A DNA stretch of 30,170 bases from Methanosarcinales archaeon (GCA_030638625.1 DAOWEE010000365.1:1-30170), one strand, 5' to 3'; positions 8,473 through 30,170 are shown, numbered from the stretch's first letter. A program made the numbers and translations. Notes: generated by a model from the sequence alone, not told the origin.

Positions 8473-10104
8473 ATGGAAATGGATACGGTGAAAAAGAAAT
8501 TGAAGGGAATCAGGATTCACCATATCCAATTATCAGTTCTTTTGGCATTATCCTTCGCTCTTCAATTCTCCAAATTGGACTGGGGAATGGTCACTAATAA
8601 TATCGGGATTAACGGACTTAACGCTTTTCATATCGTTGAACCGAATCTTGTGAACATACCCCTTCAAATGATGCAATCAGGTGACCTGAACCCGCACTTT
8701 TTCGATGAACCAAGCCTGTTCTACAATTCGATGTATGTTGTTTTTTCAGTAATTACAGGCATCATTGGACCATTATCATTTGTGGAATATATCAGGATTG
8801 CCCGGTTAATGACTATTCTTCTGAGTGTTGGGGTGGTTTTCCTGACTTATCTTACCGCAGAAAAGATGTGCAGTAGGGAAGTGGGCCTTTATGCAGCACT
8901 TTTCATGTCAATAAATCCATATTACCTCTGGTTCTCTTCCATAGCAAAAGAAGACCCGATGATGGTATTTTTCATCACTCTGTCCATGTACTTCTTTGTC
9001 AGGTATTTGAAAGATAGCAATCAGAGAAATTTTCTTTTTTCGATGGCGTCGGCCGGACTTGCTGTATCCACCAAATATCCTGCCGGAATGATGCTATTTT
9101 TACTGCCGGTATTATATTTATTTTACAATCAAACCGAACCGGTCAAAGAAAGAATTGTGGCCATAAGCAAATCCATTGCAATATACGCAGGAGCTTTCGT
9201 AATCGGCACACCTTTTTCAGTCTTGTCATTTGGAGAATTCATCAGAGGCTCTGTGGGTGAGCTGGGACATTATACTACAGGTCATCCTGGTTTTGAACAT
9301 TTTACCTGGTTCGTGCATGTACAGACCATTACCGGCCTGTGGGATGCAACCAATATATGGGGTAAGAACGGATATGGTCTTATCCTTATATTGTTTATAT
9401 CCGGAATGGTCACGATAATTTCTCAGCTGGAACATAATACAGAAAATAAACATAATGCAGAAAAACCAGGTAGATTTAACTGGTATTTAATCACAGGCTG
9501 GATATTATTAACTGTGCTGGTCTTCGGTTTCATAATTAAAGTCAAGATGGGGAACCAGATGATGATTCTGACCCCTGCTGCGATGGTGGTTTCAGGATAT
9601 GGATTTGCTGCTCTGTTACATAGATTGCCGAATCAGAATCTAAGGCGCATTATTGGAAGCGCGATCGTCCTCTTGATTTTCACATATGCCCTATCAGGTA
9701 TTGTGAGCAGTGCGAATGATAACCGGTATTATGCGGCTGATTGGCTTACTGAAAATGTCCCACCCGAAGCTATGATTGCCACGACCCTTTTTGTTCATGT
9801 ACCTGATGAATTCATTGAGGTATCTTTTCTTCCTATAAATACAGATTACCTGGAAAACTCAGATTATGATTACATTATCCTATCTTCATGGGACTTCGAG
9901 CGATATCTTGACTCACCTGATACGTATCCAGTCGAGTCAATGTTTTACCGGACCGTACTTGACGGAAATACTAGCTATAGACCGACAGCCAGTTTCAAGC
10001 GCACCGAAAATGCACGACAGAGAACCCTGAACTTTGGATTTGGTGCATTGACAAAAAGCGATTATCGCGGGGAAGTGGATATTTTTATTTTCCAGCGGAT
10101 GTAG
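8473..10104 (+). CDS. GT-C fold membrane glycosyltransferase (ArnT/PMT-like, GT39/GT83-like)
   Basis: Polytopic membrane protein with acidic first loop HFFDEPSLFY, then ARLMTILLSVGVV, ALFMSINPYYLWFSSIAKEDP and GLAVSTKYP, followed by a C-terminal soluble domain. Confidence 0.82.
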   Translation: MEMDTVKKKLKGIRIHHIQLSVLLALSFALQFSKLDWGMVTNNIGINGLNAFHIVEPNLVNIPLQMMQSGDLNPHFFDEPSLFYNSMYVVFSVITGIIGPLSFVEYIRIARLMTILLSVGVVFLTYLTAEKMCSREVGLYAALFMSINPYYLWFSSIAKEDPMMVFFITLSMYFFVRYLKDSNQRNFLFSMASAGLAVSTKYPAGMMLFLLPVLYLFYNQTEPVKERIVAISKSIAIYAGAFVIGTPFSVLSFGEFIRGSVGELGHYTTGHPGFEHFTWFVHVQTITGLWDATNIWGKNGYGLILILFISGMVTIISQLEHNTENKHNAEKPGRFNWYLITGWILLTVLVFGFIIKVKMGNQMMILTPAAMVVSGYGFAALLHRLPNQNLRRIIGSAIVLLIFTYALSGIVSSANDNRYYAADWLTENVPPEAMIATTLFVHVPDEFIEVSFLPINTDYLENSDYDYIILSSWDFERYLDSPDTYPVESMFYRTVLDGNTSYRPTASFKRTENARQRTLNFGFGALTKSDYRGEVDIFIFQRM

Positions 10105-11113
10105 TGCTTCTTCGTTTGCTCAGGAATATGAAGGACATGAACAGGCCAAATATGGACAGAATTGCATAGGATGAAGGGATGTTCTCCTTTTTATTCAAAT
10201 CCACTAACCAGATGTCAGACCCACCGTATTGTTCGCTGTCTATGTCGATTATCTTGTCCTGGAAAACTATCTTAGTCCCATCCAGACTCCAGGAAGGGGA
10301 ATAATAATCTGTGTTCACGTTTCCTGGGACCACTACGGTCTTATTGGAACCATCTGCATCCATCACCCATATATCGCCGCTTTCTTTTGTGTATGCATGG
10401 TATGCAATTTTAGTCCCGGCCGGACTCCATGAAGTAGACATCAGGTTCGGGCAGAAATTATCTGGCGGGCACCGTTCATAATGAGCATCAAAGGTCAGTT
10501 GGGAATATTCTCCAGTTTCAACATCCAGTTTCCACAATTGCTGGTCTCCGGACCTTGTGGATACAAAGACGAGATACCTGCCGTCAGGGCTCCATGAAGG
10601 AACGTCATCATCACCTGCCCCTGTGGAAAGCTGCATCTGGTTATTTCCGTCAGCGTCTATTATCCATATTTTGAGAGCACCGGACCTGGTAGAGGTAAAG
10701 GCAATACTACCATCGGGACCCCACGCAGGATTTCCATCCCATCCCGGATTGTCAGTAATCTGTCGTTCATTAGTTCCATCCACATCTATTGCCCATATTT
10801 CAGAATTTCCGGTCCTGTCAGAATAAAAAACAATACTATTGCTGTCCGGACCCCAGGAAGAGTATAAGTCTAATGAAAGGTTGGTGGTCATTTGTGTCAG
10901 ATTACTCCCGTCAGTATCCATGACCCAAATATCTGCACTCTCACCCCTATCTGACTGGAAGGCTATCTTACTTCCGTCCGGACTCCAGTCCGGTTTTGAA
11001 TCCGGCACCGGGTCATTGGTCAATTTTTTTATGTGAGATGTCTCTGAAGCAGACCCGACCATAATCAGGGATAAAATAACACACAGTAGTAATAGTAGTA
11101 ATATCTTATTCAA
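10085..11113 (-). CDS. Second secreted TolB-like (PD40) beta-propeller protein with C-terminal anchor
   Basis: TTG start and signal peptide, then repeats of P.WSPDG..IAF.S.R.G..DIW.MD.DG. The tail IPSSYAILSIFGLFMSFIFLSKRR resembles a degenerate PGF-CTERM signal. Confidence 0.9.
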   Translation of the reverse strand: MNKILLLLLLCVILSLIMVGSASETSHIKKLTNDPVPDSKPDWSPDGSKIAFQSDRGESADIWVMDTDGSNLTQMTTNLSLDLYSSWGPDSNSIVFYSDRTGNSEIWAIDVDGTNERQITDNPGWDGNPAWGPDGSIAFTSTRSGALKIWIIDADGNNQMQLSTGAGDDDVPSWSPDGRYLVFVSTRSGDQQLWKLDVETGEYSQLTFDAHYERCPPDNFCPNLMSTSWSPAGTKIAYHAYTKESGDIWVMDADGSNKTVVVPGNVNTDYYSPSWSLDGTKIVFQDKIIDIDSEQYGGSDIWLVDLNKKENIPSSYAILSIFGLFMSFIFLSKRRSTTSAGK

Positions 11114-14280: not shown

Positions 14281-17200
14281 ATGATAAAAACAAATGGAAT
14301 TTTGTTAAAACAAGTGTTAGTAGGTTATATATTAATTTCAATCATAATTTTATCAGTATTTGCTTCAATTACTCCCGGCCTAGCCGAAGGTTTGGAAGAA
14401 ACAGCAATAGACAATTCTTTTGAATTAGTTTCTCAAAATGGCCTGAACATTCTCTATAGATTGTTCAATCCTTTAATGGGTACTGCCTCCGAACTTGCCA
14501 ATATTGCAAATGATTCATCAAACACCCTAGATATCACCAACTCAACCCTTAACACATCAACAAATTCCACTCCGGCCCCAACCCCAACTTCAACATTAGC
14601 TCCGACCTTAACTCCAACATCGATTCCAACACTAACTCCAGAACCAGTATTCAATTCATCAGAAGAGACCTCATCCAATAATCCACAAACCACCAGCCCG
14701 AAAAAAACCCATGTAACAGGCAATGTCAAGGACCATGAAAACCAGCCAGTATCAACAAATATCTATGTGACAGGACATGATAACCGAAACCGGATGATAC
14801 ATACATCCAGCCAGAATTTCAATCTTGAACTTGAAGAGGGCGATAATGTTGTCTTTGATGCCGGGACAAAAGGTGTGACTGCCCGGTTCAAAATAAAGGG
14901 CAACTCCAGCAATTCCATCATTACCCTTGACAATTTCGGCAAAGCCAAACCTGCTATCACTGGAACTCCACAGTTCAACTCAATGAAATTCGTTGAGGTT
15001 CATGCAGATAACACTGACTACGAAACTGTCACCATCACAATCTCATACTCAGAGGACGAACTATCCGGATTTGACGAAGGGCTACTGACAATCTATCATT
15101 ATACAGGTGGGCAGTGGATACCAACCATATCTCATGTCGATAGAGCCTCGAACACCATCACTGCCACCGTTAACAGTCTATCCTATTTTGCTGTGGGACA
15201 GGGTAGTGGAATCAACATTTTTGCCAGATTTGACAGTACAGTGAATCCTGATGATACTATCACTGTATCCGGTGGTGTATACTATGACAACCTGACAACT
15301 GTACCGGACGCAGATATTAATATCACAATCCAGACAACTGCCATCAGTACAGATATAACCACAGATAGTCTTGGTAATTTCAAAGCAACCCTCCCCCCAC
15401 CTGCCAGCACTGGCTCTTATAACCTCAAGATAAATGCCGTCAAAGGTGCCATGGATGCCAATACCACCAGCAACCTTCAGGTAACTTCCACACCTCTGTT
15501 CAGGATAACCGGAACCATGCAGATAGACAATGAAGATGTGGTTGCATCTGATGCAAACATTACCATCAGCAGTGAACTTCCAGCACAGTCAGTATCTGAC
15601 AGTGCCCAGTTAACACTTACAGGTACAACATCGGTCACAGGTACCAAAATTTACAACCTGTTTACAGATACTAAGGTGGATGACGGTATTAATGCCACAG
15701 GGACATACACGTTCCTGGTGGATTCCCTCACATCTGGTGAGGTCACCAAGAACTGGGCCAGTATCTATCTGTATGCTATCTCCTATACCGGGCTGAGTGT
15801 TGCCGAAGAAAGTTATGACACATATCTGGACGGGACATACAAGGATTCTTCTTCTTTTGTCAAGCCGTGGGACCAGTCGACATGGTACTGGAACAATTCC
15901 TTAGCAACAGGAGATATTCTATATAATACCACACAGACCGTAGATGTGGTCACCCCGAATCCGTCCACACTGGTCCGGTTCAACCTGACCGGGGATATGC
16001 ATATCAATTTCACCAGTTCAGGTCTTAGCAAACCTTCAAATTCAAAACTGTATGCTGATAATGTGCTTCTACTCTCCACCACCGGTGACCTTACAACAGA
16101 GAATATTAACCTTACCGGTTTTCTGGGTGATAGCAATGACCTTATCGTTACTTCAGATACAAAAGGCGGTATCAGTTATGCCCTGACATCCCAGTTCCAC
16201 AAATATATGAACGCTTCCGTGGTCGATGACGGAGTTAACTATACAGTCACGCTTACAGCCACCAATAACAATTCAGAATCATGGTACTCTCCAGCCTTTG
16301 GATATACTGTTCCCCAGGGTGCCGGGAATTTCGTGATTATTGATAAGGATAACAATGAACTGAATGTCACATCTTCATGTACTCTTCCATCTGATGGTGG
16401 TGAAGTTGACATACCTGCATCAGTGATAGGTGAGATTAAAAGCGGCATTATCAGGACATTCACACTTTCGTATAGTCTGAAGCAGTTGGATGTTACAACC
16501 CGTCCTTTTGCTGACACTTACATGCCCGGGCAAACTGTTGATATCTATACAGATGTGTTGTACAATGGGTCTGTTGTCAGTGATGCGACGGTTACAATAA
16601 CTATAAAAGACCCACTGGATGTAACAGTATTTAACGGCCCTGCAACATGGAACGGTAAAAATTATTCCATCACAAAAACCACCAACGATACCTGGCTCAT
16701 TGGCGTTTATCATGTGAATGCCAGTGCTTCAAAGACCGTGGACAGTGTGCTTCGTACCGGCATTAATAGTACCAGTTTTGTTGAAAAACGTCTCATATTA
16801 TATGTGCAGGCCAACGGTCCCTATCCACCACTTAGAAACATCACCCTCTCAGGCCGGGCATATTACAGCGATGAGAGTGCAGAAGGGGGCAAGACTGTCA
16901 ACATCTCTGTGGGTGGAATCAATACTACTGCCACTACAAATGCCACCGGACATTTCCAGACAATTGTTCCGGGTATGGCAGTCGGTTCTTACCCAGTCAT
17001 CGCCAATATCACCAACGGATACGGCCTTACCGATTCAGATAGCGATACTGTACTCGTGCTGGACACACCATTCTTTATCCTTATTGATACTGAACTTAGC
17101 GAAACATCAGGCCAAGCATTGCTTGAACCCGACCATAATTTTACAGTAAACATTCCCAATAGCATGGATGTGCTCAGTTCCACCATCACACTGACTGGAA

Positions 17201-20200
17201 TTACACAAAAGACCGAAGAGTATGACATCTCACCACCTCCCATTTCAATGCTTTCCATCGGTACCACACAATTCGATTTTGTAAACGGGACATTTACCGT
17301 GATAGTACCTCCGTACAGAAGCGTTACCGTCAATGATGTCAGTATGACAGTCACAGCCTTCCCACAGGGCTCGGGTGTCCAGGAATCGGTATTCAATAAT
17401 TCGATTGACGGCATTGATGTAGGTGAATCACGATATGTTGTTCCTGATACACCTTCAACCCACACCTGGACTGATGATATCACTGCAAGAGTTACACCAG
17501 GGACCGCACATGATGTCAGGATTACGAAACTTGATACATTCACAATCGATTACAAGTTCTTAGTGATGATGCACGTGAACAGGACAGGATTCCTGGACAC
17601 ACCATTGAATCCACGTGCATATGTGGTCGGCAACATCATTTATGCTGAACCGGGAGATATGCTGACCAATTCACATACTACAGACATTACTAAGTTCCTT
17701 GAGGCGGGCAGCAATTCAGTAAACTTTGTCAATGACCGCAATGCACTGGTGAATTATATTATACAAACAAGGGTCAGAGATTGGAATTATACACAAGAGA
17801 CAATAGCAGAGATTCCCAGCAGATTCGAGATTGAGAACGTATTGTACGCTGCAGCTACTGACCAGAAACTGATGAACCCTGAGGTCAGGCATCCGTTAAA
17901 GAGATTAGCATCTAATCTTACAGTCTATGACATTGACAATAATACCGACATAACAGCAAGCTGTACCGTAGCAGATAACGAACTGTTCATCCCGACCAAC
18001 CTTATCGGTCCCATTAACGCGGGCGATACCAGACTCTTCAATGTCTCGTATGATGCACCCCGACCCAATATCTCACCGTCGCTCAACACATCAGTATGCA
18101 ACCATAATGATACCATCCTGATATCAGTAGACATAGAATTCTACGGCGTCCCGATGACTGATGCGAATGTTTCTGTCACAATCGCCAACAATACCAATAC
18201 AACCTGGCAGGGTACTCTGACCCATACCGGAAGCGGGACATATACTGTCCTTTACCAGATACCGGCCAACGCAACATTGGGCATCTATAATGTCACAGTG
18301 TCTGCATATAATGAATCTACCAATATGGACGACGAAGTGGTGTCGTACCAGTTAAGCCAGCTTACCATTACTCCATTTACTATCGGGCCATTCGTGACCG
18401 GGAATGGTGGAAATATAAACGGGAATGTGAACGATTCCAGGACTGATGCACCTATAAATAGCGCAACGGTTGAAATTACCATTTCCAACCAGTCAGGAAT
18501 CGTGAACCAGACAGAAGTGTATTCCAATGTCGCCGGGTACTTCTCTTTTGTATGGGACGCAACAATGGCAGGAGATTACCTTCTCACGATAACTGCCAAT
18601 GATTCTGACCTCACAATAGGTACACTGGAACAACCCATTGCAGTAGAATACGATGTGGTACTGGTACCGAACAGGACAGATTACAATGTCAATTATACAG
18701 CCACACTGAACGTGTCTGTACACGACCTGGGCAGTATTGATGTGCCAGGTGCTAATGTATCCGTACTTATCGATATTCCGGCAGCAGGTAATGAGACACT
18801 GTCAACCGGTAACGGACGGTTATCGTATCTCGGCGGCGTATATACGGGGACGTTCAATACTACCGCTAACATGGGTACGTACAATTATACTGTAAATGTT
18901 TCAAATGTTACGGCTAACGGCACCATTACGGGTAATGATGTCGGCAGTTTCAGGGTGAGCGACCTACACATAACCGAAATGTCGGACAAATTGGTGTATA
19001 TTGTTGATGAAAACGTGACTGTATGGGGCAGTGTTGAGGATTTGGAAACAGGACTCTTTGTTGAAAACGGTACTTACAATATCTCTTTATTCAACTCATC
19101 GGGTTTTGTGACTTCCAGGTCAGGGAGTATATTGACAGTACCGGACACTATAGGTGCGGCATTGTATGATGAAGATACGTTCGAGGTTGCAGGTGATGAC
19201 TGGAATTCTCGCAACAATGAAGACCCTGTCCGTGACTCCTCCACTGCTTATGCCGGGTCATGGAGTTTGCATATGACCTGGCCCGGTACTACTGCCTGGG
19301 GAGGACGAAACTTTGAAGGGACCAATAACCTTGAAGCTGGTCAGACCTCTTCAGGATATTCCACCACTGATTATCCGTACATGAGCATGGCATACCGTAT
19401 CAGTCCTGACGACAAGATCAATATGCTCATACTGGTGAACGGTGCATGGCGTTCGTTAGATGTTACCCAGGGAATCAATACAACAGGGAGTTACCCCACA
19501 GTGGCTAACTGGGGTTCGGTAAATTCAGATGACCAGTGGCACTGGACCGAGATTGATCTGGACGGGCAATTGGACGCATCCATGGGAATAGGGAATCACC
19601 AGATAACTGGTATTATCTGGTATCCAAATAGTGCAATAGACGGGTATCTTACCGGCGATTTCTGGATAGATGATTTCAGGATTTCCAATAACTCCATTGC
19701 CACTTCATATGAGGAGACGTTCAGCGGTCTTCCTGCCGATCCATATACTGCAATGGTAGATATATCATACCTGACTCTAGTTGGAGCAAATTCATCTGAT
19801 TTTACTATCAATTACAATGTTAACTCCAGTATTCCCTCTCCACTGTACAGTGTGGGCAGGGATGTGAATATCAATATCAGTGTATTTGATACGGGTTCGA
19901 TTCCTGTTACAGGTGCCAACCTTACAGTCAATATCACGAACAGTACAGGCTTAGTCAAAAGCATATCAGGTTCAAATATTACCGATAACAATAACGGCTA
20001 CTATAATACTACATATATTACTGAAATTGAAGGCGATTTCAATATATCGGTCCATGTCGAGAAGGGCTCGGCTGTAGGTGATGCTCCTGTGTTGCCATTC
20101 AGGGTAACCCAGTTCTATGTGGACGTTGCACCTGAATTCCAGTGGTATGAGGTTGGAGATAATGTTACATTCACCACACTTACAGGCCGGCTTTGGGACT

Positions 20201-23200
20201 TACAGGGAGCACCAAAATGGGCCAATGTCACAATTCAAGTATTCGGCCCTGTGGGTACCCTGATACAGAATATCACACTCACAAACCAGTATGATAACTT
20301 CACTCACAGTTTTTATCTGGGTTCCACCAACAATTCAGGTACTTACTCCATCCAGGTAAATGCCAGCGAAATTGAATCAGGTGGTAACCTTGCAGCATCC
20401 AATACATCATCGTTCAATGTGGAATATTTCGTGGATTCTGCTACGAACCGTTCGCAATATAATACTGATGATACCGTCAACGTGACACTTAATATCAAGA
20501 ACAGTACCACCAATATCAACAGTGCCTCCGTTGATGTCAATGTGACCTATATTGGTCCGTCCGATTGGTGGAATGCAAGTTACTGGAATTTTGACCGTGA
20601 GTACAGAGTGGGTATCAGTACAGTAAATACATATAACCGCAGCAGGGAAGATACTTATATTGTGGTTCGTGGTTCTGACCTTGCGTCTGCGGGAGTATCA
20701 TTGACCAACCTGCCTATAAATTCGACAAGGGTTATTGCGTATTCAACACAGGAAAACCTTTCATCCAGGAATGAGGTTGCCAGGGTTGTATCTGATATTA
20801 ATGGTGACGGGTACCTGAACACCAGTGATGAAATTATATTCCTTGCCAATTTCTCAGCCAGTGAAAGTAAGAATTACTGGTTGTATTACGATTACGGTTA
20901 TGACATAACCGCTTCCCCCGAATACACCATTCCCCTGAAACTTCAGTTATACCTTGCCGAAGAATTCATTATAACCAGTGATTACTATGCCCGTGTTTAC
21001 TATAAACACAGTAACAGGGACGGCACATTCGGCGGATATGTCCAGATAGATGACAACAATTATTATGCCAGGGGGGCTGTCATTGCTGATTTCGACAATG
21101 ACGGTGACTATGATGTAGTATCTGGCGACCGTTACAACCTCTTCTTCCATGAATGGACCGATGTGGGTACATTCACTAAAACCAGTGTCACGCCAACCTT
21201 CTCTGCCAGTAATTATTTAATGGATATGGCTACTGCCGATTTTGATGAAGACGGCAACATGGATTTCATTGTAGGCGGCAATAACGATGACCTGTACCTG
21301 TACGAGGGTGATGGGATGGGGGATTTCACTAAAATCACCATAACCACCAACGCACCGGGAACAGCAGGCAGAGGGAAAGATGCGGGTGACGTGAACGAAG
21401 ACGGGCATATGGATTTTGTCTATGCAGAAAACCCGACCGGTAAGGTATATGCATATTATGGAAATGGTGCCGGTACATTCGCAGCTCCGGTCGAGCTTGT
21501 GACCTTACCAGATACTGACCCCTATGGTGTTGCATTGGGCGATTTTGATAATGACGGTCATCTTGATATCATTGCAAATGGCGGAGCAGGAGGGGCATAT
21601 CATATCTACAGCGGGGACGGGACTGGTATTTTTGTTGATGAAGGCATGAAATTTGATGTCAATCGCCTTGGTGGTGTTGATGCATTTGATTATGACCATG
21701 ACGGTAACCTTGATGTTATCCATACCACTTATGATACTGAATATACCTATTACCGGGCAGGAAATGGCAATTTCGGATTCGGGTCATTGAGTCTTGGAGT
21801 CAATGGTTACAATGTAATGGGTATCAGTGCACCGCCAATGCAGGATATTATGATTCCATCCATTGGTATCAAGCAAAACCTCAGCCATACCCAGGTAGGA
21901 AGCAGTCTTGCCACTGGTCTGGGTAACGGTAACTACAATGCTGAGTTCACTCTCTCGGATGCACAGCTTGGTATTTACCTGGTTGAAACCGATGTTACGT
22001 CACCCTGGCCGGGTGATGATGCTGTTACATTCTTTGTACGCAGCCTGGATGAAGTAAATAATACCTACGGCCCGCACAACTTCAATGGCACACACCAGTC
22101 CCCCATCCTTCCTGTTATAATTTCAGGGACCATCAGGGATAGTGAATTCAATAATACCCTGAACAATGCCTATGCAAATATCACTATCAGGTACCCCAAT
22201 AACACAGTTGCTGCCTACCAGTCAATAACTACCGATGCCAATGGTATTTTCAATCACGACTTTACGTCCCAGTTCAACAGCAACTCACCTGCCGGCACCT
22301 ATAATGTCAGTATCCTGGTAAACGATGGCGGGATAATTCAGTTAATTGAGACTTACCTTACAGTATCAGATGTGTACTCCAGTTGGGCTGACCCTGCCAA
22401 AGATTACCGGGTTGCTATTATACTGAACAATTCAGCCAATTCAACACCAGTAACGTACAACGAAAGAGGTTTCGTGCTTGAATTGCCTGGCAGTGTAGCT
22501 CAATCTTCAGTGGCAATCACGGATATCAACGGGAACGCTGTTGGCAACTCGCTTATCTGGGACAATGCCAATACCATAAATGTCACACTGGACAACTTCA
22601 GTCTCGGCATGTTCGAAGGCGGGCTTGTCTACATTTATTTTGACAGGGATGCACAACTTCCTCCAGATAATACATCACTTACCAGCAGTATCTGTCCGTT
22701 AATTGAAGGTGCAATTGAAGGATATTGGATGGTCATCACAAACGACCTTGCCATATACAATCCCTCCACTACTGCCCAGATAACTGCAAACCTGACACTT
22801 GCCAATGGTACACAATTAACTGGTTCCACTGTGAATTTCAGTGTTTATTATCCAGATATGGCACTTGCATACGGACCGCACAATATAGTCAGCGACCCTG
22901 CAAATATCTCGGTTTCAGGAAATTCAAATACACTATCATATTCAATTCCAAACCTGAAAGGCATATATACAGTCGTTGTCAATGCCACATCCCCCAACGG
23001 CATACCCAGGACAGAAATCTCAACATTCAATGTGGGCGGTCTGGGCGTAACAGCAGATACTGACAGGTCATATTACAATACCAGGGATGATGTATGGCTC
23101 ACAGTCGATGTTACTGATTTAGGTGTCCCTGTAAACAATGCTTTAGTTACAGTGGATTTCAATGACCCCAGTGGTCTGTTACCCTATGAATACAACGAAA

Positions 23201-26200
23201 TAAATTCAACGAATTCAGATGGTATTGCAATCATACACTGGCCAATGATATCCCCGGATTCACCAGTCGGGAACTATTCCATCACAGTGAATGCCAATAC
23301 CGCCAACGATTCAGGCTATAATGGTTCACAGACCATAGAGATTGACAACTATGTAACAACTCTCGACCTGAACGATAATTTAGTAAGCCTTACCAATCCC
23401 GTCACAGCCAGCGGTTCCACAACCCACAACGGCAGTGAAATCCCGTCCTGGGTCAACATTTCAGTGACGTACCAGTCTGCATTTATCGATGATACCGTTC
23501 CCTATGGTGCAAGTACAGGAAATCAATGGATATGGGATTACAATAACGTGCACAGCGGCAGTTACTCCCATCTCCAGGAAGTCCAGGGTCCGGCAAGTGT
23601 TCAGCATATATTCTACGATGCATACAGCGGATACCGTGCAGGCAGCGGCGAAAATATCTCGGTCTGGGTTTATGTTGATTCCATTCCTGAAACAGTTGAT
23701 GAGATTATGGTCCAGTTCCATGCCAACGATAGCTGGAACCACCGTGCCTACTGGGGTGTGGACAATATTCCCCTGGGTACCAATAATACCACATCGAGAC
23801 AATATATTGGCCCACTTCCCGCAGCAGGTACATGGTACGAACTTGTCCTGACCAGTTCACAGGTTGGCCTGGACGGACTGGTAGTGGACGGCATGGCCTT
23901 TGCCGTAAACGAGACCAGCAGCAACGTGGCAAGGGTATGGTTCGATGAAGTAACCTTCGAATTTGCCAATACTCATGATTCATATCTTGAGAACCAGAAT
24001 GTCTCAACCCCTTATTCGTATGTCATATCCAATACTTTCACAGAAGGATTCAACGACACCTTCACTACATTCAACAGCACTGAATGGGACAATTCTTCCA
24101 CCTCAATCCACAACATCTCAGCAGAATGGATGGAATTAAACGGCAACGGCCTTGATTTCAATGCCAATTTCTCAGGCAGTACCACCTATTCCAGAACAGC
24201 GTACCCGGTACTCACCGCCGATTTCATGACCGATAACCTCAGCGGCGGACTGGTCGTTGCAGTTGAAGGCAACCCCACATCAGGCTATCGCCGCCATGGT
24301 ATCTATATCGATAAAGCCGATGGCATACTCAAAACCCAGACCTATGACCTTGACGGCTGGCATTATGAAAACCTGTTCACTCCCGAGATTGGTAAATGGT
24401 ACACAATGGAGGTCCGGTTCTATGCTACGGAATCACAGCTATTCGTGTATTCCAGGGATGACAGTTCCAGGCCCATGCCCGATAAAGCAGACAGTACCTA
24501 CAACCTGACCGACTGGAACCCGAATTTCCATTTCTGGACATTCGACAATACAGGCTACATTGATAATGCTGCAGTCACCACCCGCTCTAATACCAGTGCA
24601 CTGCCATGGGTAGGCGATTATATCGTAACAGGCCTAAGCAGTTATTCTAACCTATACACCGTAAACGTCAGCACCATACTGGTATCCAACTTGAACATCA
24701 CTGTCAATACAGGTGATTCCTATGACCTCACAATAGGAAACCCTGAACTCAATAATGTCACCATCAACGGAACTGTGCAGGATAACCGCTCAGGTGTACC
24801 CCGTCCGTCCCCCGTACTTGTGTATGTAACCGCACCTGACGGATTGATATCGGTCTACAACCTGCAAACAGATGTTAACGGTTCCTTCACAGTCAGTTTC
24901 ACAAGGCCATCCCTTATCGGTACTTATGATGTAACCGTCACAGCCAAGGATACAGCAGGTACCACCGGCAGGACCGATACATCCTTTGACATCCAAATCG
25001 GGTCAACCATTGCACCCACCATCGAGACCATCAATCTCATGGATACTGCCATACTTACGGTTGAACTGTTCGATGACGTTATCTTCGATGATATGGAACA
25101 GGTCACTTCCAACTGGTCATACCGTGCCGGTACTACAGGAACCGTCCGGAATATGTCAGAAGAAGTCCATGACAGAACACGCCTGTATCATAAGAGCGGG
25201 ACCCAATCCCAGAAAGTGGATTATTACGTCACCAAAAGCACAAACGAATACATGTACCTTGAATCGGGCTTAGGTCCAATTGATGTGTCACAGGTCAACA
25301 ATATAACATTCTGGCTCTACCTGGACCTGGTTGACGCATTCGATGCAGTGGCACTGGTCCTTGAAAATGACGCCACAGGAACGAGCAGTGACGAGCGTAT
25401 CTACGGTCAAAACCCCGTACCTGGCTGGAACTATTACTCATTCAATGTCAGTGATTTTGGTATGGACCTCACTCATGCTCACTACCTTACAGTCCTGATA
25501 GATGACGATAATAGTGCCAGTGAAGTAGAAACCAGAGGTTCGGTCTACATTGATGATTTCAAGGTCATTAACGGCAATTCCATCACAGGTGCCAGTGTAT
25601 CCATCAACATCACCAAACCTGGCATGTCAGTATTGAGTTATTCAACTCCGGCAGACATTACCGACCTTGGAAACGGAAGATATTCATTAGACTTTGCAGG
25701 AACTGATGAATATGGCAACTATAACATATCAGCCATATCCACCAGTGATGGTTACACCAGTACCGCCACTACCCAGTTCATAGTAGACCGTCTGAATGTT
25801 TCACCGGTATTACTGGAAACACCATACATAGTTGGTGATACCGGTAACTTCAGTGTCAGTGTCCATTCCAATATGTCAACACCATTCGATGGAACAGTTT
25901 CCCTGAACCTGACCCTACCAAACGGCACATCTGTTAATTATAACACATCCGCATTCAGCCAGTCAACTGAAAATTATGCCCGCACCGGTACTGCCGGCGG
26001 GTCAGGATTTGGCAGTGTAACCAGAATCAACGACGGTTCATTTGTATATCCTGCAACCACTGCTGCCTGCATTGGGGATTATGCACAGATAACATGGGCA
26101 CAACCCGTAACCATTAACCAGGTCATGGTGTATTACGATACCAACAAATGGCCAACCTCATACAGGATACAGGTACTGGATACCGACGGTGTCACCTGGG

Positions 26201-29200
26201 TTGATAAAAAGGTCGTGAATGGATTCACTACAACCAGTTTCCCTTATGTCATCGACGATATTCCCACCTCGACCACAAAAGGTGTGCGTATCTCCTATGA
26301 AACTTCCAATAACGCCCAGAACATATACATCTTCGAAATGTGGGTCTATAATACAGCAGCCACATTCACTCCCTTGTTACCCATATCAGGAGACTATACC
26401 GCCCAGTTCACTGCCCTGGACTCAAAAGATGTCAGTGGAACCACTTCAATTACAGTCCCTGTCAACTTCAACGTTGAGACCGTCTTTGATAAATTAAGCT
26501 ATGACCCTGGCGACAATGCCACGGTATCTATCAGTGTCTTTAACGGCACCCATTACGTGCCAGGTGTTTCAGTCTCTTCACAATTGAGTTATATCGGTAA
26601 CGGGTCATTGATTGCAAGCAACTCGACGACCACCGATTCGAATGGTACTGTGGATGTTATGTACCAGATTCCTGAAGACTATTCATCATATTACATTAAT
26701 TCATCAGTAGCACATAACGGAATAACAGGTTTGGATTCGGAAGTTACCACGTCTGCCCATCTTAAAATGTGGATAGACCCTGCTGAAGTCCTGGTTGGTC
26801 ACCCAAGCTGGAATGCTGACCTTACTCCTGAAGAATACAGGGATATTTCCATTCATGCTGAATTCCTGACCAAAGCCGGTCATATCCTTGATGACCAGAC
26901 GATTACTGCCAATATCTACAAGTATGACGGAACTCTTGTAACCAGTCTTCCCTTGACCGGAGTAGATGGTCTATATACGGCTGATTATACCATCGCCGGA
27001 AACAGTCCCGAAGGCACGTACTGGGTTGAACTGGATAAATATCCAGGCATTAATGAATATTTCAGTGTCATGGAATGGGGCTGTACCAGATGTCATATAA
27101 ATCCTGGTATGGACTATAATCACTATTACGCCCATGCCATTACCAGTGGTGCCTACGGTAATTCTGACGGGCCAGTGTCCCCATCCAATTTCAGCAAGGA
27201 ATATGTTCATGAGGTGCATCCGCTGGTAGACCCTGCTCCGGCAGGTACAGGGGGTTCAAATTGTGGTTATCACAACAATGCAAGGGATGTTAATTGTGTC
27301 AAATGTCACCTGACCGAAGTACTCCCCTCTGCCTGTCCTGATTGCCATAACAGCGGTCAGGATAAATGGTCTAATGTTTTGTCAGAAGATTATGGTGCAG
27401 ATGTACATGCAGGCATCAATGTTGACACAGCCAAAAACAAAATCGCTAATTCATCACATGGAGGCAATCCATCTTTTGCAGTGGACAGCAATGATGATAC
27501 GTACTGGTCTCCTGATGGTGTCACCAATCAGATCATGGAAATCGACCTTGATGGTGCATATTATGTGGACGGTGTCCGAATTGCGATGTCCAATTATAAA
27601 TCCACCTATACCGTGCAAGGACTGAACAATGGCAGCTGGATAACCCTGATATCGTCCACCACATATTCAAATTATGATAATGAACAGCTCTATACTTTCA
27701 GCAGCCAGAATATCTCAAGGGTCAGGTTCACGGTCAGTTCATGGAGCAGAGTGTGGACTGGTACGGGTTATTGCAGCTCTCCCACCCATACTGCCGCCGT
27801 TCTTACCGAACAGCCGAAACTTAAATCCCTGAATGTATATTTACCCAACAATGTTTCCCTGACATTACTCAATCCGGATACACATGATTCATGCCAGGTC
27901 TGCCATGGCGGCGATATCTCCAACGATATCCAGCCCACAATTCCGGATTGTACAGACTGCCACCCTGAATCCTCGGGTTCCGGTATGCAGGTGATGCCGG
28001 ACAACATGAGCACTGTCAGCAGGGAACTGGAAGATTATGAGGATGTTTCAGATATCATTGTATATTCCGCACCTGGTTTCCCTGTCTCTACAGTCAGCCT
28101 GACGGCATCAACCGACCAGGCTGTGGAAGGGACAAAATCAGGTAAACTGGATTATTCCATGGCTCTGGGTGTTGGCAGGATATATATTGACCAATCAGAC
28201 CTTGAATTCACCAATGCTACCAGTATCAAATTCTGGCTTTATGGAAATCCGGCAGACGACAATACCCAGTTCCAGGTCAGTATCAGGAACAATAAGTCAG
28301 GCAAATGGCATTACAACACAGCCCAACATCTGAACTGGTCAGGCTGGAAAGAGGTCGAAATTCCAATAACATCATTGAGCGAACTTGAAATTCTTTATAT
28401 CTCCCATGCAGATATGCTTCGGATACAGCTTGAGAATTATGATTCAGACAGTGGTACCATTTACATTGATGATTTGCATGTGGAGCGCAAAGGCACACAT
28501 ACCCAGTATCAGGAAATTGAATGCGGTACGTGTCATGAATCAGTACACAATACCCAGTATTCTTATGATTGTGAGAATTGCCACCAGACACAAACCCATG
28601 GCAATATGACAGCTTCTGAACCAACATGTGTCAACGTGGATTGCCACCATTATATGGAAAATGGCAGCCTCATTGTGCGAAATAGTACAAATGAAACCAC
28701 CCTGGTTGAGATACCAATGGATGGTGCCAAGATATCAGAATGCGGCGTATGCCATAGTCTGGCCGAACCTCACGATAAACAGTGGAACTATGTATGTATG
28801 GACTGTCACCGCGACAGCGAACACGGTCAGGTAGATGAGTCATATACCGACTATGAAAAAGCGTCAACCTGCCTGAAATGCCACAATGACCCCCATGACC
28901 TCCAGAATGAACTATCAGCCAAAGGCGGATGTAACGGCTGTCATCAGCACCGTATCCACGGCCAGAACAGTCTCACCACCCCATACAATGAATCCATCCA
29001 TTTGGACTGTTTGCGGTGTCACGGAAACCCTGTGAATGATTCAGAACCAATACCTGTAGGCCTCGGTCATCCCGGCGAGATACATATCACACAGACCTAT
29101 GGACTTACCGCAGCAGAGTGCATGTTCTGTCATGAGAATGCCACAAACTCGTATGAATTGCATACCGGATTGAATGTGGATTTGGCAGATACCACACTGG

Positions 29201-30170
29201 TCGAATCAATTGAGAATGAAAGTGTTTGTATCATCTGCCATGACCCTGTGCCATTATTTAGCAACACTAGCCTGGAAGCAAGAGATGACCTCTTACTCGA
29301 ACCCCATGCCACCCAGGTGGCAGGTCACGGTAATGTCAGTTGCTTTGTATGTCACGGTCACAGCCCTGCCCAGTTAACCCTGAATTTCGGTGCGGATTGT
29401 GTAGGCTGCCATATTAATGAAGCAGTGGCTCCTGTAAATTCCACTAACGGCACCGATATCCCACCCACACAGGTCCTGGGTCACGGGAACACCGAATGTT
29501 CAGAGTGCCACGGGCATACCAACTCACAACTCACTTTTGTAGGTGAAACCGCGGAAGAATGTATGGCATGCCATGAAAATGCGTCCGCTGAAGTTAAGTT
29601 ATTGGAATATGAGGACCCCGTATCCAATGGAACCGTGCCCTTAAGCCAAAGCGGTAATGTGTGGACAGTAACACCCCCACAGGTTGTGGGTCACGGCAAT
29701 GTTACCTGTCTTGAGTGCCACACCCATGCTCCCAGCGACTTCGTAAATGTTGAGGATTTCCTTGGTCCCGATTGCACAGCATGTCATATGAATGAAAGCA
29801 GGAACGTATCATTGATCAATGACACCATACCAAAGAACAGCAATACCGTTGTAGTGGATAATTCCAATTCTACCTGGGTTGTCACATCACCAATAGTCCT
29901 GGGTCATGGTAATGCATCCTGTGCTGAATGTCACGGGCATACCAATTCTAACTTGACTTTCCTGGGCAGCACTATCAGTTCATGTATTGACTGCCATGAG
30001 AACAGTTCCAGGGAATCATTGCTGCTGGATGATACCATACCTGAATCAGATACTACGACCATAATCAACGATACTGTTAATCCCAAGATAGTAAATCCAC
30101 CGCAGGTAGATGGGCATGGAAATGTGAGCTGCTTTGTATGCCATGACCACGCACCCAGTGATTTCAGCAA
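14281..30170 (+). CDS. Giant secreted adhesin-like multiheme c-type cytochrome (>5,296 aa, at least 23 CXXCH; 3' end beyond window)
   Basis: Manual translation of frame +1 from ATG 14281 finds no stop to the window end. It has a signal peptide (MIKTNGILLKQVLVGYILISIIILSVFASITPGLA), a Pro/Thr linker, many Ig-like repeats, FG-GAP repeats, and discoidin- and CBM-like sandwiches. CXXCH motifs start at 27082, 27295, 27334, 27892, 27949, 28522, 28570, 28741, 28795, 28870, 28930, 29008, 29119, 29227, 29341, 29398, 29497, 29560, 29707, 29773, 29920, 29983 and 30130. It is absent from the supplied ORF track. Confidence 0.95.
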   Translation, partial: MIKTNGILLKQVLVGYILISIIILSVFASITPGLAEGLEETAIDNSFELVSQNGLNILYRLFNPLMGTASELANIANDSSNTLDITNSTLNTSTNSTPAPTPTSTLAPTLTPTSIPTLTPEPVFNSSEETSSNNPQTTSPKKTHVTGNVKDHENQPVSTNIYVTGHDNRNRMIHTSSQNFNLELEEGDNVVFDAGTKGVTARFKIKGNSSNSIITLDNFGKAKPAITGTPQFNSMKFVEVHADNTDYETVTITISYSEDELSGFDEGLLTIYHYTGGQWIPTISHVDRASNTITATVNSLSYFAVGQGSGINIFARFDSTVNPDDTITVSGGVYYDNLTTVPDADINITIQTTAISTDITTDSLGNFKATLPPPASTGSYNLKINAVKGAMDANTTSNLQVTSTPLFRITGTMQIDNEDVVASDANITISSELPAQSVSDSAQLTLTGTTSVTGTKIYNLFTDTKVDDGINATGTYTFLVDSLTSGEVTKNWASIYLYAISYTGLSVAEESYDTYLDGTYKDSSSFVKPWDQSTWYWNNSLATGDILYNTTQTVDVVTPNPSTLVRFNLTGDMHINFTSSGLSKPSNSKLYADNVLLLSTTGDLTTENINLTGFLGDSNDLIVTSDTKGGISYALTSQFHKYMNASVVDDGVNYTVTLTATNNNSESWYSPAFGYTVPQGAGNFVIIDKDNNELNVTSSCTLPSDGGEVDIPASVIGEIKSGIIRTFTLSYSLKQLDVTTRPFADTYMPGQTVDIYTDVLYNGSVVSDATVTITIKDPLDVTVFNGPATWNGKNYSITKTTNDTWLIGVYHVNASASKTVDSVLRTGINSTSFVEKRLILYVQANGPYPPLRNITLSGRAYYSDESAEGGKTVNISVGGINTTATTNATGHFQTIVPGMAVGSYPVIANITNGYGLTDSDSDTVLVLDTPFFILIDTELSETSGQALLEPDHNFTVNIPNSMDVLSSTITLTGITQKTEEYDISPPPISMLSIGTTQFDFVNGTFTVIVPPYRSVTVNDVSMTVTAFPQGSGVQESVFNNSIDGIDVGESRYVVPDTPSTHTWTDDITARVTPGTAHDVRITKLDTFTIDYKFLVMMHVNRTGFLDTPLNPRAYVVGNIIYAEPGDMLTNSHTTDITKFLEAGSNSVNFVNDRNALVNYIIQTRVRDWNYTQETIAEIPSRFEIENVLYAAATDQKLMNPEVRHPLKRLASNLTVYDIDNNTDITASCTVADNELFIPTNLIGPINAGDTRLFNVSYDAPRPNISPSLNTSVCNHNDTILISVDIEFYGVPMTDANVSVTIANNTNTTWQGTLTHTGSGTYTVLYQIPANATLGIYNVTVSAYNESTNMDDEVVSYQLSQLTITPFTIGPFVTGNGGNINGNVNDSRTDAPINSATVEITISNQSGIVNQTEVYSNVAGYFSFVWDATMAGDYLLTITANDSDLTIGTLEQPIAVEYDVVLVPNRTDYNVNYTATLNVSVHDLGSIDVPGANVSVLIDIPAAGNETLSTGNGRLSYLGGVYTGTFNTTANMGTYNYTVNVSNVTANGTITGNDVGSFRVSDLHITEMSDKLVYIVDENVTVWGSVEDLETGLFVENGTYNISLFNSSGFVTSRSGSILTVPDTIGAALYDEDTFEVAGDDWNSRNNEDPVRDSSTAYAGSWSLHMTWPGTTAWGGRNFEGTNNLEAGQTSSGYSTTDYPYMSMAYRISPDDKINMLILVNGAWRSLDVTQGINTTGSYPTVANWGSVNSDDQWHWTEIDLDGQLDASMGIGNHQITGIIWYPNSAIDGYLTGDFWIDDFRISNNSIATSYEETFSGLPADPYTAMVDISYLTLVGANSSDFTINYNVNSSIPSPLYSVGRDVNINISVFDTGSIPVTGANLTVNITNSTGLVKSISGSNITDNNNGYYNTTYITEIEGDFNISVHVEKGSAVGDAPVLPFRVTQFYVDVAPEFQWYEVGDNVTFTTLTGRLWDLQGAPKWANVTIQVFGPVGTLIQNITLTNQYDNFTHSFYLGSTNNSGTYSIQVNASEIESGGNLAASNTSSFNVEYFVDSATNRSQYNTDDTVNVTLNIKNSTTNINSASVDVNVTYIGPSDWWNASYWNFDREYRVGISTVNTYNRSREDTYIVVRGSDLASAGVSLTNLPINSTRVIAYSTQENLSSRNEVARVVSDINGDGYLNTSDEIIFLANFSASESKNYWLYYDYGYDITASPEYTIPLKLQLYLAEEFIITSDYYARVYYKHSNRDGTFGGYVQIDDNNYYARGAVIADFDNDGDYDVVSGDRYNLFFHEWTDVGTFTKTSVTPTFSASNYLMDMATADFDEDGNMDFIVGGNNDDLYLYEGDGMGDFTKITITTNAPGTAGRGKDAGDVNEDGHMDFVYAENPTGKVYAYYGNGAGTFAAPVELVTLPDTDPYGVALGDFDNDGHLDIIANGGAGGAYHIYSGDGTGIFVDEGMKFDVNRLGGVDAFDYDHDGNLDVIHTTYDTEYTYYRAGNGNFGFGSLSLGVNGYNVMGISAPPMQDIMIPSIGIKQNLSHTQVGSSLATGLGNGNYNAEFTLSDAQLGIYLVETDVTSPWPGDDAVTFFVRSLDEVNNTYGPHNFNGTHQSPILPVIISGTIRDSEFNNTLNNAYANITIRYPNNTVAAYQSITTDANGIFNHDFTSQFNSNSPAGTYNVSILVNDGGIIQLIETYLTVSDVYSSWADPAKDYRVAIILNNSANSTPVTYNERGFVLELPGSVAQSSVAITDINGNAVGNSLIWDNANTINVTLDNFSLGMFEGGLVYIYFDRDAQLPPDNTSLTSSICPLIEGAIEGYWMVITNDLAIYNPSTTAQITANLTLANGTQLTGSTVNFSVYYPDMALAYGPHNIVSDPANISVSGNSNTLSYSIPNLKGIYTVVVNATSPNGIPRTEISTFNVGGLGVTADTDRSYYNTRDDVWLTVDVTDLGVPVNNALVTVDFNDPSGLLPYEYNEINSTNSDGIAIIHWPMISPDSPVGNYSITVNANTANDSGYNGSQTIEIDNYVTTLDLNDNLVSLTNPVTASGSTTHNGSEIPSWVNISVTYQSAFIDDTVPYGASTGNQWIWDYNNVHSGSYSHLQEVQGPASVQHIFYDAYSGYRAGSGENISVWVYVDSIPETVDEIMVQFHANDSWNHRAYWGVDNIPLGTNNTTSRQYIGPLPAAGTWYELVLTSSQVGLDGLVVDGMAFAVNETSSNVARVWFDEVTFEFANTHDSYLENQNVSTPYSYVISNTFTEGFNDTFTTFNSTEWDNSSTSIHNISAEWMELNGNGLDFNANFSGSTTYSRTAYPVLTADFMTDNLSGGLVVAVEGNPTSGYRRHGIYIDKADGILKTQTYDLDGWHYENLFTPEIGKWYTMEVRFYATESQLFVYSRDDSSRPMPDKADSTYNLTDWNPNFHFWTFDNTGYIDNAAVTTRSNTSALPWVGDYIVTGLSSYSNLYTVNVSTILVSNLNITVNTGDSYDLTIGNPELNNVTINGTVQDNRSGVPRPSPVLVYVTAPDGLISVYNLQTDVNGSFTVSFTRPSLIGTYDVTVTAKDTAGTTGRTDTSFDIQIGSTIAPTIETINLMDTAILTVELFDDVIFDDMEQVTSNWSYRAGTTGTVRNMSEEVHDRTRLYHKSGTQSQKVDYYVTKSTNEYMYLESGLGPIDVSQVNNITFWLYLDLVDAFDAVALVLENDATGTSSDERIYGQNPVPGWNYYSFNVSDFGMDLTHAHYLTVLIDDDNSASEVETRGSVYIDDFKVINGNSITGASVSINITKPGMSVLSYSTPADITDLGNGRYSLDFAGTDEYGNYNISAISTSDGYTSTATTQFIVDRLNVSPVLLETPYIVGDTGNFSVSVHSNMSTPFDGTVSLNLTLPNGTSVNYNTSAFSQSTENYARTGTAGGSGFGSVTRINDGSFVYPATTAACIGDYAQITWAQPVTINQVMVYYDTNKWPTSYRIQVLDTDGVTWVDKKVVNGFTTTSFPYVIDDIPTSTTKGVRISYETSNNAQNIYIFEMWVYNTAATFTPLLPISGDYTAQFTALDSKDVSGTTSITVPVNFNVETVFDKLSYDPGDNATVSISVFNGTHYVPGVSVSSQLSYIGNGSLIASNSTTTDSNGTVDVMYQIPEDYSSYYINSSVAHNGITGLDSEVTTSAHLKMWIDPAEVLVGHPSWNADLTPEEYRDISIHAEFLTKAGHILDDQTITANIYKYDGTLVTSLPLTGVDGLYTADYTIAGNSPEGTYWVELDKYPGINEYFSVMEWGCTRCHINPGMDYNHYYAHAITSGAYGNSDGPVSPSNFSKEYVHEVHPLVDPAPAGTGGSNCGYHNNARDVNCVKCHLTEVLPSACPDCHNSGQDKWSNVLSEDYGADVHAGINVDTAKNKIANSSHGGNPSFAVDSNDDTYWSPDGVTNQIMEIDLDGAYYVDGVRIAMSNYKSTYTVQGLNNGSWITLISSTTYSNYDNEQLYTFSSQNISRVRFTVSSWSRVWTGTGYCSSPTHTAAVLTEQPKLKSLNVYLPNNVSLTLLNPDTHDSCQVCHGGDISNDIQPTIPDCTDCHPESSGSGMQVMPDNMSTVSRELEDYEDVSDIIVYSAPGFPVSTVSLTASTDQAVEGTKSGKLDYSMALGVGRIYIDQSDLEFTNATSIKFWLYGNPADDNTQFQVSIRNNKSGKWHYNTAQHLNWSGWKEVEIPITSLSELEILYISHADMLRIQLENYDSDSGTIYIDDLHVERKGTHTQYQEIECGTCHESVHNTQYSYDCENCHQTQTHGNMTASEPTCVNVDCHHYMENGSLIVRNSTNETTLVEIPMDGAKISECGVCHSLAEPHDKQWNYVCMDCHRDSEHGQVDESYTDYEKASTCLKCHNDPHDLQNELSAKGGCNGCHQHRIHGQNSLTTPYNESIHLDCLRCHGNPVNDSEPIPVGLGHPGEIHITQTYGLTAAECMFCHENATNSYELHTGLNVDLADTTLVESIENESVCIICHDPVPLFSNTSLEARDDLLLEPHATQVAGHGNVSCFVCHGHSPAQLTLNFGADCVGCHINEAVAPVNSTNGTDIPPTQVLGHGNTECSECHGHTNSQLTFVGETAEECMACHENASAEVKLLEYEDPVSNGTVPLSQSGNVWTVTPPQVVGHGNVTCLECHTHAPSDFVNVEDFLGPDCTACHMNESRNVSLINDTIPKNSNTVVVDNSNSTWVVTSPIVLGHGNASCAECHGHTNSNLTFLGSTISSCIDCHENSSRESLLLDDTIPESDTTTIINDTVNPKIVNPPQVDGHGNVSCFVCHDHAPSDFS
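14569..14646 (+). repeat. Pro/Thr-rich low-complexity linker within the giant ORF
   Basis: TPAPTPTSTLAPTLTPTSIPTLTPEP. Confidence 0.85.
21085..21720 (+). repeat. Five FG-GAP/VCBS-like Ca2+-binding repeats (beta-propeller) within the giant ORF
   Basis: ADFDNDGDYDVV, ADFDEDGNMDFI, GDVNEDGHMDFV, GDFDNDGHLDII and FDYDHDGNLDVI at about 50-aa spacing. Confidence 0.9.
27082..30144 (+). other. Multiheme region of the giant ORF (23 CXXCH plus one CX4CH within the window)
   Basis: Motifs in order: CTRCH, CVKCH, CPDCH, CQVCH, CTDCH, CGTCH, CENCH, [CVNVDCH], CGVCH, CMDCH, CLKCH, CNGCH, CLRCH, CMFCH, CIICH, CFVCH, CVGCH, CSECH, CMACH, CLECH, CTACH, CAECH, CIDCH, CFVCH. Confidence 0.93.
29311..30170 (+). 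repeat. Tandem diheme repeat (xQV.GHGNxxCXXCHxH...CXXCH), alternating A/B types, at least 4.5 units
   Basis: The His of GHGN starts at 29326, 29482, 29692, 29905 and 30115, giving spacings of 52, 70, 71 and 70 codons. Confidence 0.9.

Follow-up and report, generated by a model that had tools for sequence, protein, structure and literature searches.

At the 3′ end of a 30,170-nucleotide stretch of DNA from a Methanosarcinales archaeon (GCA_030638625.1, DAOWEE010000365.1:1-30170; the whole stretch is hereafter called the window), positions 29311-30170 encode a succession of CxxCH heme-binding motifs, which a preliminary description made from the sequence alone had read as alternating diheme units that form an intramolecular nanowire. 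The locus raises the question of whether these units are self-sufficient heme-binding modules, how such a series of modules arose, and whether modules joined in a single chain could carry electrons. Our analysis indicates that the region encodes the first part of an array of diheme units related to cytochromes c3 and c7, and that this array is probably one section of a giant secreted cytochrome that relays electrons along its polypeptide.

Each unit has the form H-x4-CxxCH-x-H-x14-19-CxxCH, with a GHGN motif preceding the first CxxCH. On the plus strand, 29311-30170 encodes 4⅓ of these units, whose types alternate as A B A B A. Unit 1 (29326-29412; type A, alpha; HGNVSC FVCH G H ... CVGCH), which is orthologous to unit 1 in all homologs, is followed by a linker of 23 amino acids that the alignment shows to be shorter than in most homologs (29413-29481). 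Unit 2 (29482-29574, type B), unit 3 (29692-29787, type A, gamma) and unit 4 (29905-29997, type B), all delimited by their motifs and translation, are each followed by a linker of 39 amino acids (29575-29691, 29788-29904 and 29998-30114, respectively), and the last unit (unit 5, type A, 30115-30168) is cut by the end of the window. Exactly 4 Cys and 4 His are present in each of units 1-4, where the CxxCH motifs account for two of the His and GHGN and CH-x-H for one apiece, as had been proposed for a diheme unit with two CxxCH motifs and exactly two extra His, and the A+B tetraheme cassette, estimated in the preliminary description at about 140 amino acids, has a measured period of 141 amino acids (unit starts 5068 to 5209 and 5138 to 5279).

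The reading frame continues past the window, and the full array comprises 12 diheme units with 24 hemes, starting at residues 5016, 5068, 5138, 5209, 5279, 5353, 5405, 5480, 5554, 5595, 5659 and 5724. By core identity, the first nine can be typed as A B A B A B B A B, and the last three (10-12) are divergent. Identity is 49-65% among B cores, 42-53% among A cores and mostly 38-48% across types, and by this measure the A/B distinction is real, though modest. The alternation of A and B, which had been presented as the rule, holds within the window but is not strict beyond it, where two B-like units, 6 and 7, stand side by side and the last units, 10-12, have diverged. CxxCH motifs account for 48 of the 49 Cys in the array, which leaves no room for concealed non-canonical heme sites and shows that the units are truly diheme; the same count rules out triheme or tetraheme units completed by hidden CXnCH sites. 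Most units are separated by spacers of 22-45 amino acids. Units 9 and 10 (L004 ~6500-6740, minus strand; residues 5554-5636) are separated by only 4 amino acids and look like a compact tetraheme form of these modules.

The array belongs to a giant open reading frame (ORF) that begins at 14281 on the plus strand (frame +1), encodes 5,296 amino acids up to position 30168 and is open at its 3′ end (14281-30170). Nucleotide 29311 corresponds to residue 5011 of this ORF, and the ORF listing contained no overlapping competitor of at least 80 amino acids in the other frames across 29311-30170. The window corresponds to an entire contig (C250 of genome G000), the last 141 bases of which are 100% identical to the end of a second contig of the same genome (C246); the minus strand of C246 (L004:3257-8338) completes unit 5, continues with units 6-12 and extends the frame by 1,646 residues up to a stop. 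The merged protein is 6,943 amino acids long and contains 66 CxxCH and 5 CX3-4CH motifs (~71 hemes), all of them past residue 4267, such that the cytochrome region makes up the C-terminal ~2,680 amino acids. An independent protein of 6,943 amino acids (P0002), encoded on a single 44.9-kb contig, differs from the merged sequence at 35 residues, none of which is in the array, and Logan contigs from two runs (X2 and X3) cross the C250/C246 junction without indels.

To avoid circularity, units were defined for the analysis of histidines by the order of CxxCH motifs alone, with His ignored. The 81 units compared come from 12 homologous proteins, some pairs of which are only ~40% identical. Without exception, the first motif is followed by His in the CH-x-H arrangement and preceded by a His no more than 17 residues upstream, and in none of the 81 does the second motif have the CH-x-H arrangement. 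The extra histidines, on the conservation of which the preliminary description depended, are therefore conserved throughout. In an alignment of 48 cassette rows, no column is invariant apart from those of 8 Cys, 8 His and both glycines in the first unit's GHG, and no conserved Met is present. Since the linkers contribute just two surplus His across the first ten units, the two extra His of each unit are the only candidates for distal ligands encoded in the sequence. Bis-His ligation, for which the number of histidines is right, is the natural reading, being the only ligation mode that the sequence supports. In cytochrome c3, the upstream His ligates heme I and the His that follows CxxCH ligates heme II. 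By analogy, the GHGN His would ligate the first heme of each unit and the CH-x-H His the second, and both hemes would be low-spin and bis-His ligated.

Profile searches place the array near the c3/c7 superfamily. The whole array scored 79.6 bits against PF14522 (cut-off 24.8) and 46.1 bits against PF02085 (cut-off 22.9), and units 9 and 10 together matched PF02085 positions 24-101 of 101 with 29 bits. The best match to Paired_CXXCH_1 (PF09699) reached 18.6 bits (E = 0.0015), with others at 10-11 bits, below the gathering score of 20.6, and an NCBIfam scan gave no match to TIGR01905. In the PDB, profile searches returned as best match 8k9e_A, a protein with a c7-like domain (E = 2.8e-5), followed by ACIII ActA, NrfH, c3 and c7, with no close solved structure among them, and phmmer, run with the region as query against PDB sequences, gave only chance matches. 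All feature neighbors in the ESM Atlas belong to c7, c3 or Paired_CXXCH clusters. On these matches, the unit is a diverged half-c3/c7 module, related to the N-terminal half of c3 that carries heme I and heme II, with no full match to a curated family; the c3/c7 matches are partial and borderline, and the unit has not turned out to be a full copy of a known repeat family.

A phmmer search with the part of the array inside the window against 1.84 billion cluster representatives yielded 12 proteins at E <= 0.001, namely giant cytochromes of Methanoperedens, fragmentary relatives and, with weak matches, a few bacterial proteins resembling c7 polymers. Of 284 species genomes of the order, six carry the array: the source genus accounts for two of them (of 8 genomes) and the Methanoperedens genus for four (of 49), with none among the other 227. 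Either lateral transfer or loss and poor assembly of giant genes could account for this patchy distribution. The array has 5 units in the Methanoperedens homologs, in which each unit is orthologous from species to species, 4 in the relative P0003, and 12 in the source genus, a number found in the source genome, in the strain variant P0002 and in both paralogs of a second species. The paralogs of this second species of the same genus (G012) are located at L025 (contig C65, 614-20407, plus strand) and L027 (contig C12, 12201-17594, minus strand). One of them, an open frame of 6,598 amino acids, ends as the source protein does; the other is cut by a contig end and has a different, CarboxypepD_reg-like C-terminus.

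Units cluster by type and linker flavors recur, which argues for an origin by internal duplication, as originally suggested. Duplication is not recent, however. Identity between cassettes is 38-48% at the amino acid level and 51-57% at the DNA level, and the array goes undetected by Tandem Repeats Finder, as fits copies that are old and diverged. In unit trees, every positional unit forms its own well-supported clade across proteins, and therefore the 12-unit state is older than both the split of the paralogs and speciation. These trees resolve positional orthologs and not the order of duplication, that is, gain in this lineage versus loss in Methanoperedens. No array length variants were seen in contigs from four seep samples. 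The identities and trees show the array to be old and fixed rather than a repeat that is tunable at present. The proposed length tunability fits deep evolutionary time, over which arrays of 4, 5 and 12 units have arisen, but not the recent past, in which 12 units are constant across the strain variant, the paralogs and the four seep samples; the comparison of copy number between strains that the preliminary description had called for gave no difference, with 12 units in both the source genome and P0002. An active, strain-variable tandem repeat is ruled out by the 51-57% DNA identity together with the constancy of the 12 units across strains and samples.

How might such an array function? Giant cytochromes of anaerobic methanotrophic (ANME) archaea are thought to export the electrons of anaerobic methane oxidation, although we know of none that has been solved or biochemically characterized. 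We consider it fairly probable that the array is a section of a ~71-heme secreted protein that relays electrons along its polypeptide by way of c3/c7-related diheme nodes. Each node would bind two hemes covalently through its CxxCH motifs and would itself supply both distal His, electrons would pass from node to node, the array would make up one section of an extracellular electron-transfer protein, and the neighboring CcmF, CcmC and CcmE would mature the giant cytochrome. The motif layout, the invariant ligand residues, the numbers of copies, the genes nearby and the narrow distribution are observed, whereas which His pairs with which heme, how far apart the hemes of different units lie, whether the chain is continuous, which way electrons flow and what the physiological partner is are inferred; the intramolecular nanowire of the preliminary description is accordingly a presumptive role.

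We predicted structures with AlphaFold2 (AF2) from two inputs, six units (401 amino acids, 13-row alignment) and one cassette (141 amino acids, 48 rows comprising orthologous and paralogous cassettes). In the cassette model (mean predicted local distance difference test score, pLDDT, 66.9), the confident part consists of the two linkers only, which are predicted as beta strands at pLDDT 76-92. The linker after unit 2 (strands E21-26 and E29-33, pLDDT 76-92) ends in W-x-V-x-PPQV-x-G, and the linker after unit 3 has strands E77-80, E92-95 and E102-104 (pLDDT 78-91). The spacers are also conserved in sequence (for example, N-x-T-x-P ... W-x-V-x-PPQV-x-G). Being both conserved and the best-predicted part of the model, they appear to be folded as beta elements instead of acting as flexible tethers.

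Several results weigh against an electron relay along the chain. The six-unit model is unusable (mean pLDDT 36.7), and the heme cores of the cassette model have pLDDT below 50, as expected for a model built without hemes. With this weak cassette model, Foldseek found nothing in the PDB at E <= 0.001, the best Z score in a wide VIA-align search was 2.3, and a shape search of the ESM Atlas gave template modeling (TM) scores of at most 0.34, to unrelated families. Inter-unit heme distances, and hence the continuity of a wire, are conjectural. Single cassettes match Cytochrome_C7, Cytochrom_c3_2 and Cytochrom_CIII at only a borderline 21-30 bits and with partial coverage of the profiles. The sole hydrophobic segment of the protein is N-terminal, before 4,232 heme-free residues, and for this reason an electron route from the cell to the heme region is not evident; no C-terminal transmembrane helix, present in some Methanoperedens homologs, was found by Kyte-Doolittle analysis (the chain ends ...WACSTCH), and no S-layer domain (PF07752, DUF1608) was detected in the giant protein at E <= 0.01. 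Finally, no RNA run that could show expression is listed for the source.

Alternatively, the array could be a string of hemes, in which diheme beads on spacers of 22-45 amino acids exchange electrons with one another, or hand them to outside partners, through domain motion and collision and not through a fixed chain. Spacers of this length do separate most units, the models give no geometry that links one unit to the next, and the architecture is on record, having been proposed for Geobacter PgcA (PMC10570954). The conservation of the spacers and their confident prediction as beta structure point instead to folded domains, and we regard transfer by collision as unlikely. Storage is a further alternative that is compatible with a wire role: the array with its 24 hemes, like the entire ~71-heme region, could mainly buffer charge at the cell surface and not carry a directed current, an established idea for monomeric multi-module cytochromes that has been proposed for GSU1996 (PMC10138318). 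The very high density of hemes and the want of an obvious membrane-proximal entry point for electrons in the giant protein would suit a capacitor. GSU1996, however, is periplasmic, and the array here is fused to 4,232 amino acids of adhesin-like extracellular domains that fit contact with an outside partner or mineral, making a predominantly capacitive function, in our view, less likely still. That the array is an assembly artefact of a repetitive region, or chance CxxCH motifs in a non-coding frame, has a negligible probability even though the contig breaks within the array, as the 6,943-amino-acid protein recurs on one contig of another assembly (P0002), Logan contigs of two runs cover the junction without indels, the second species has two paralogs that both have 12 units, and cassette DNA identity (51-57%) is too low for assembler confusion; mis-assembly is ruled out by the first three of these observations. 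Relay of electrons from node to node along the polypeptide is the explanation that we favor.

The remainder of the giant protein is consistent with secretion. Its hydrophobic segment (14281-14385, plus strand; amino acids 4-38 by Kyte-Doolittle) is a candidate signal peptide or signal anchor. Pfam and motif scans delimit a heme-free extracellular region of 4,232 amino acids (14386-27081, plus strand) with no CxxCH, which contains MG2, CarboxypepD_reg, Filamin/YtkA-like Ig and FG-GAP domains; the heme region that follows has 23 CxxCH motifs in the part inside the window (27082-30168, plus strand) and is interrupted by F5/8 type C and CBM11-like domains. Of the 35 differences between the merged protein and P0002, 29 are crowded into residues 740-1163 (16498-17769), a patch of 424 amino acids in the heme-free Ig-like region, leaving only 6 in the remaining 6,519 residues. 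Judged by this distribution, the patch looks like a strain-level hypervariable or recombined segment in the presumed outward-facing part of the protein.

The window is chromosomal, carrying genes for an Rpb3/RpoA-type RNA polymerase subunit and ribosomal proteins S4, S11 and S13. Genes for cytochrome c maturation bracket the giant cytochrome gene. On one side, 6.8 kb upstream, is a gene for a CcmF-type heme lyase (5515-7443, plus strand; Pfam Cytochrom_C_asm and CcmF_C), and on the other, directly downstream, are genes for CcmC and for CcmE with a CPTKY-type motif (L004:2434-3102 and L004:1861-2322, respectively, minus strand). A dedicated CcmF paralog has been reported to adjoin giant ANME genes for multiheme cytochromes (MHCs) of type B (PMC9012536), and the Ccm genes beside the giant gene fit this association. 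'ANME-2 cluster archaeon' is the source of the nearest named homologs of this CcmF, which are 77% and 59% identical to it. Close CcmF homologs (47-77%) occur only in metagenome-assembled genomes of ANME-2 and Methanosarcinaceae, beyond which identity is at most 37%, a distribution which suggests that the protein belongs to a specialized lyase clade. With McrA encoded in the genome and a cold-seep metagenome as the source of the DNA, together with these CcmF homologs, the host is a cold-seep methane-oxidizing archaeon of the ANME-2 cluster.

A gene for a PMT_2/PMT-family membrane glycosyltransferase of 543 amino acids (8473-10104, plus strand) sits between those for CcmF and the giant cytochrome and is flanked by genes for two paralogous PD40/WD40-like beta-propeller proteins (7403-8407 and 10085-11113, both minus strand). 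The giant protein contains 281 N-x-S/T sequons, compared with 124 ± 9 expected from its composition (200 shuffles), and sequons recur at heme sites, as GHG-N-x-S/T-C in 45 of the 81 units and as CH-x-N-x-S/T in 49 of the 81. This enrichment implies that the heme array is heavily N-glycosylated, and the glycosyltransferase may have some connection with how the giant protein is glycosylated. Bis-His nodes combined with folded beta domains bearing N-glycans could even constitute a new kind of rigid single-chain conduit, a rod of more than 20 nm in which the number of cassettes (4-5 units in Methanoperedens versus 12 in the seep genus) is matched to the distance to a syntrophic partner or mineral; this extended version of the relay reading is tentative, and we doubt that it holds in full.

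The 141-amino-acid AB cassette, with four hemes and strictly conserved ligands, is a small and tractable piece of the giant cytochrome, and natural variants of 4, 5 and 12 units exist. If the nodes do form a continuous chain, the array would show that the length of an archaeal wire is encoded in one polypeptide, in contrast to Geobacter, which polymerizes subunits. The gain would be one of detail within a known kind of system.

Genome-level descriptions already exist of giant MHCs of ANME-2 and ANME-3 with 20-86 heme motifs (Chadwick et al. 2022, PMC9012536), and with 66 CxxCH and 5 CX3-4CH motifs in 6,943 amino acids the present protein has the size and heme content of giant ANME MHC type B. 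MHC-A, like MHC-B, is defined by an S-layer domain and a C-terminal transmembrane helix, and MHC-C by a pectin-lyase domain (PMC9012536); because all three features are absent, the giant protein fits none of these classes. Peptidase M6, described for the N-terminal region of MHC-B, had no Pfam match here, MG2, FG-GAP and Ig-like domains being found instead. Among these giant cytochromes, the true homologs P0004-P0010 are Methanoperedens proteins of 5,300-6,500 amino acids (for example, VEPN01000007 from Ca. Methanoperedens sp. MnB_21) that are 38-43% identical over the array region and have orthologous units 1-3 in common with it. They share with the present protein a heme-free N-terminal part (Ig, MG2, CBM) and a long C-terminal multiheme region; the CcmF gene near the present gene recalls the paralog reported for ANME MHC-B. 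The S-layer domain is present in P0005, P0007, P0008 and P0009 and absent from the Pfam list of P0002. The present protein differs from the Methanoperedens homologs in having 12 diheme units instead of 5 and in coming from a marine seep ANME-2 genus.

Despite only distant kinship through c7 profiles, the array resembles GSU1996 (PDB 3OV0) in consisting of one chain of small, repeated c3/c7-superfamily modules that arose by duplication. GSU1996, a periplasmic bacterial protein of 42 kDa, has triheme modules that are joined by short linkers and include one His-Met heme in every domain, whereas those described here are diheme and all-His, with no conserved Met and with beta spacers mostly of 22-45 amino acids, in an archaeal, extracellular protein of 6,943 amino acids; with two CxxCH motifs per unit and no conserved Met, a GSU1996-type triheme c7 unit with a His-Met heme is not what the array contains. 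In class III cytochrome c3 (PF02085), the half that carries heme I and heme II has a layout that the H...CxxCH(x)H...CxxCH of each unit resembles. One N-terminal His of c3 serves heme III. Unlike c3, units 1-8 have long inserts between halves, and each half would provide both of its own distal His.

The filaments formed by OmcS, OmcE, OmcZ and the archaeal extracellular cytochrome nanowires (ECNs) have the same presumed job, long-range transfer through stacked extracellular bis-His hemes, and none of these filament subunits was among the sequence or profile matches in the PDB. These filaments lengthen by polymerizing subunits of 4-8 hemes, whereas here length is encoded in one chain. This contrast, on which the preliminary description also remarked, has already been drawn for Geobacter sulfurreducens GSU1996, GSU0592 and GSU2210, in which modules are concatenated into what have been called monomeric 'nanowires of hemes', as opposed to polymerized filaments (PMC10138318, PMC11492766). 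The concept of a single-chain multiheme protein is therefore not itself new, since GSU1996-type and other modular single-chain cytochromes are known. What is specific to the array described here is a self-sufficient diheme node with predicted bis-His ligation, the way in which such nodes alternate with conserved beta spacers, and the series of 4, 5 and 12 units.

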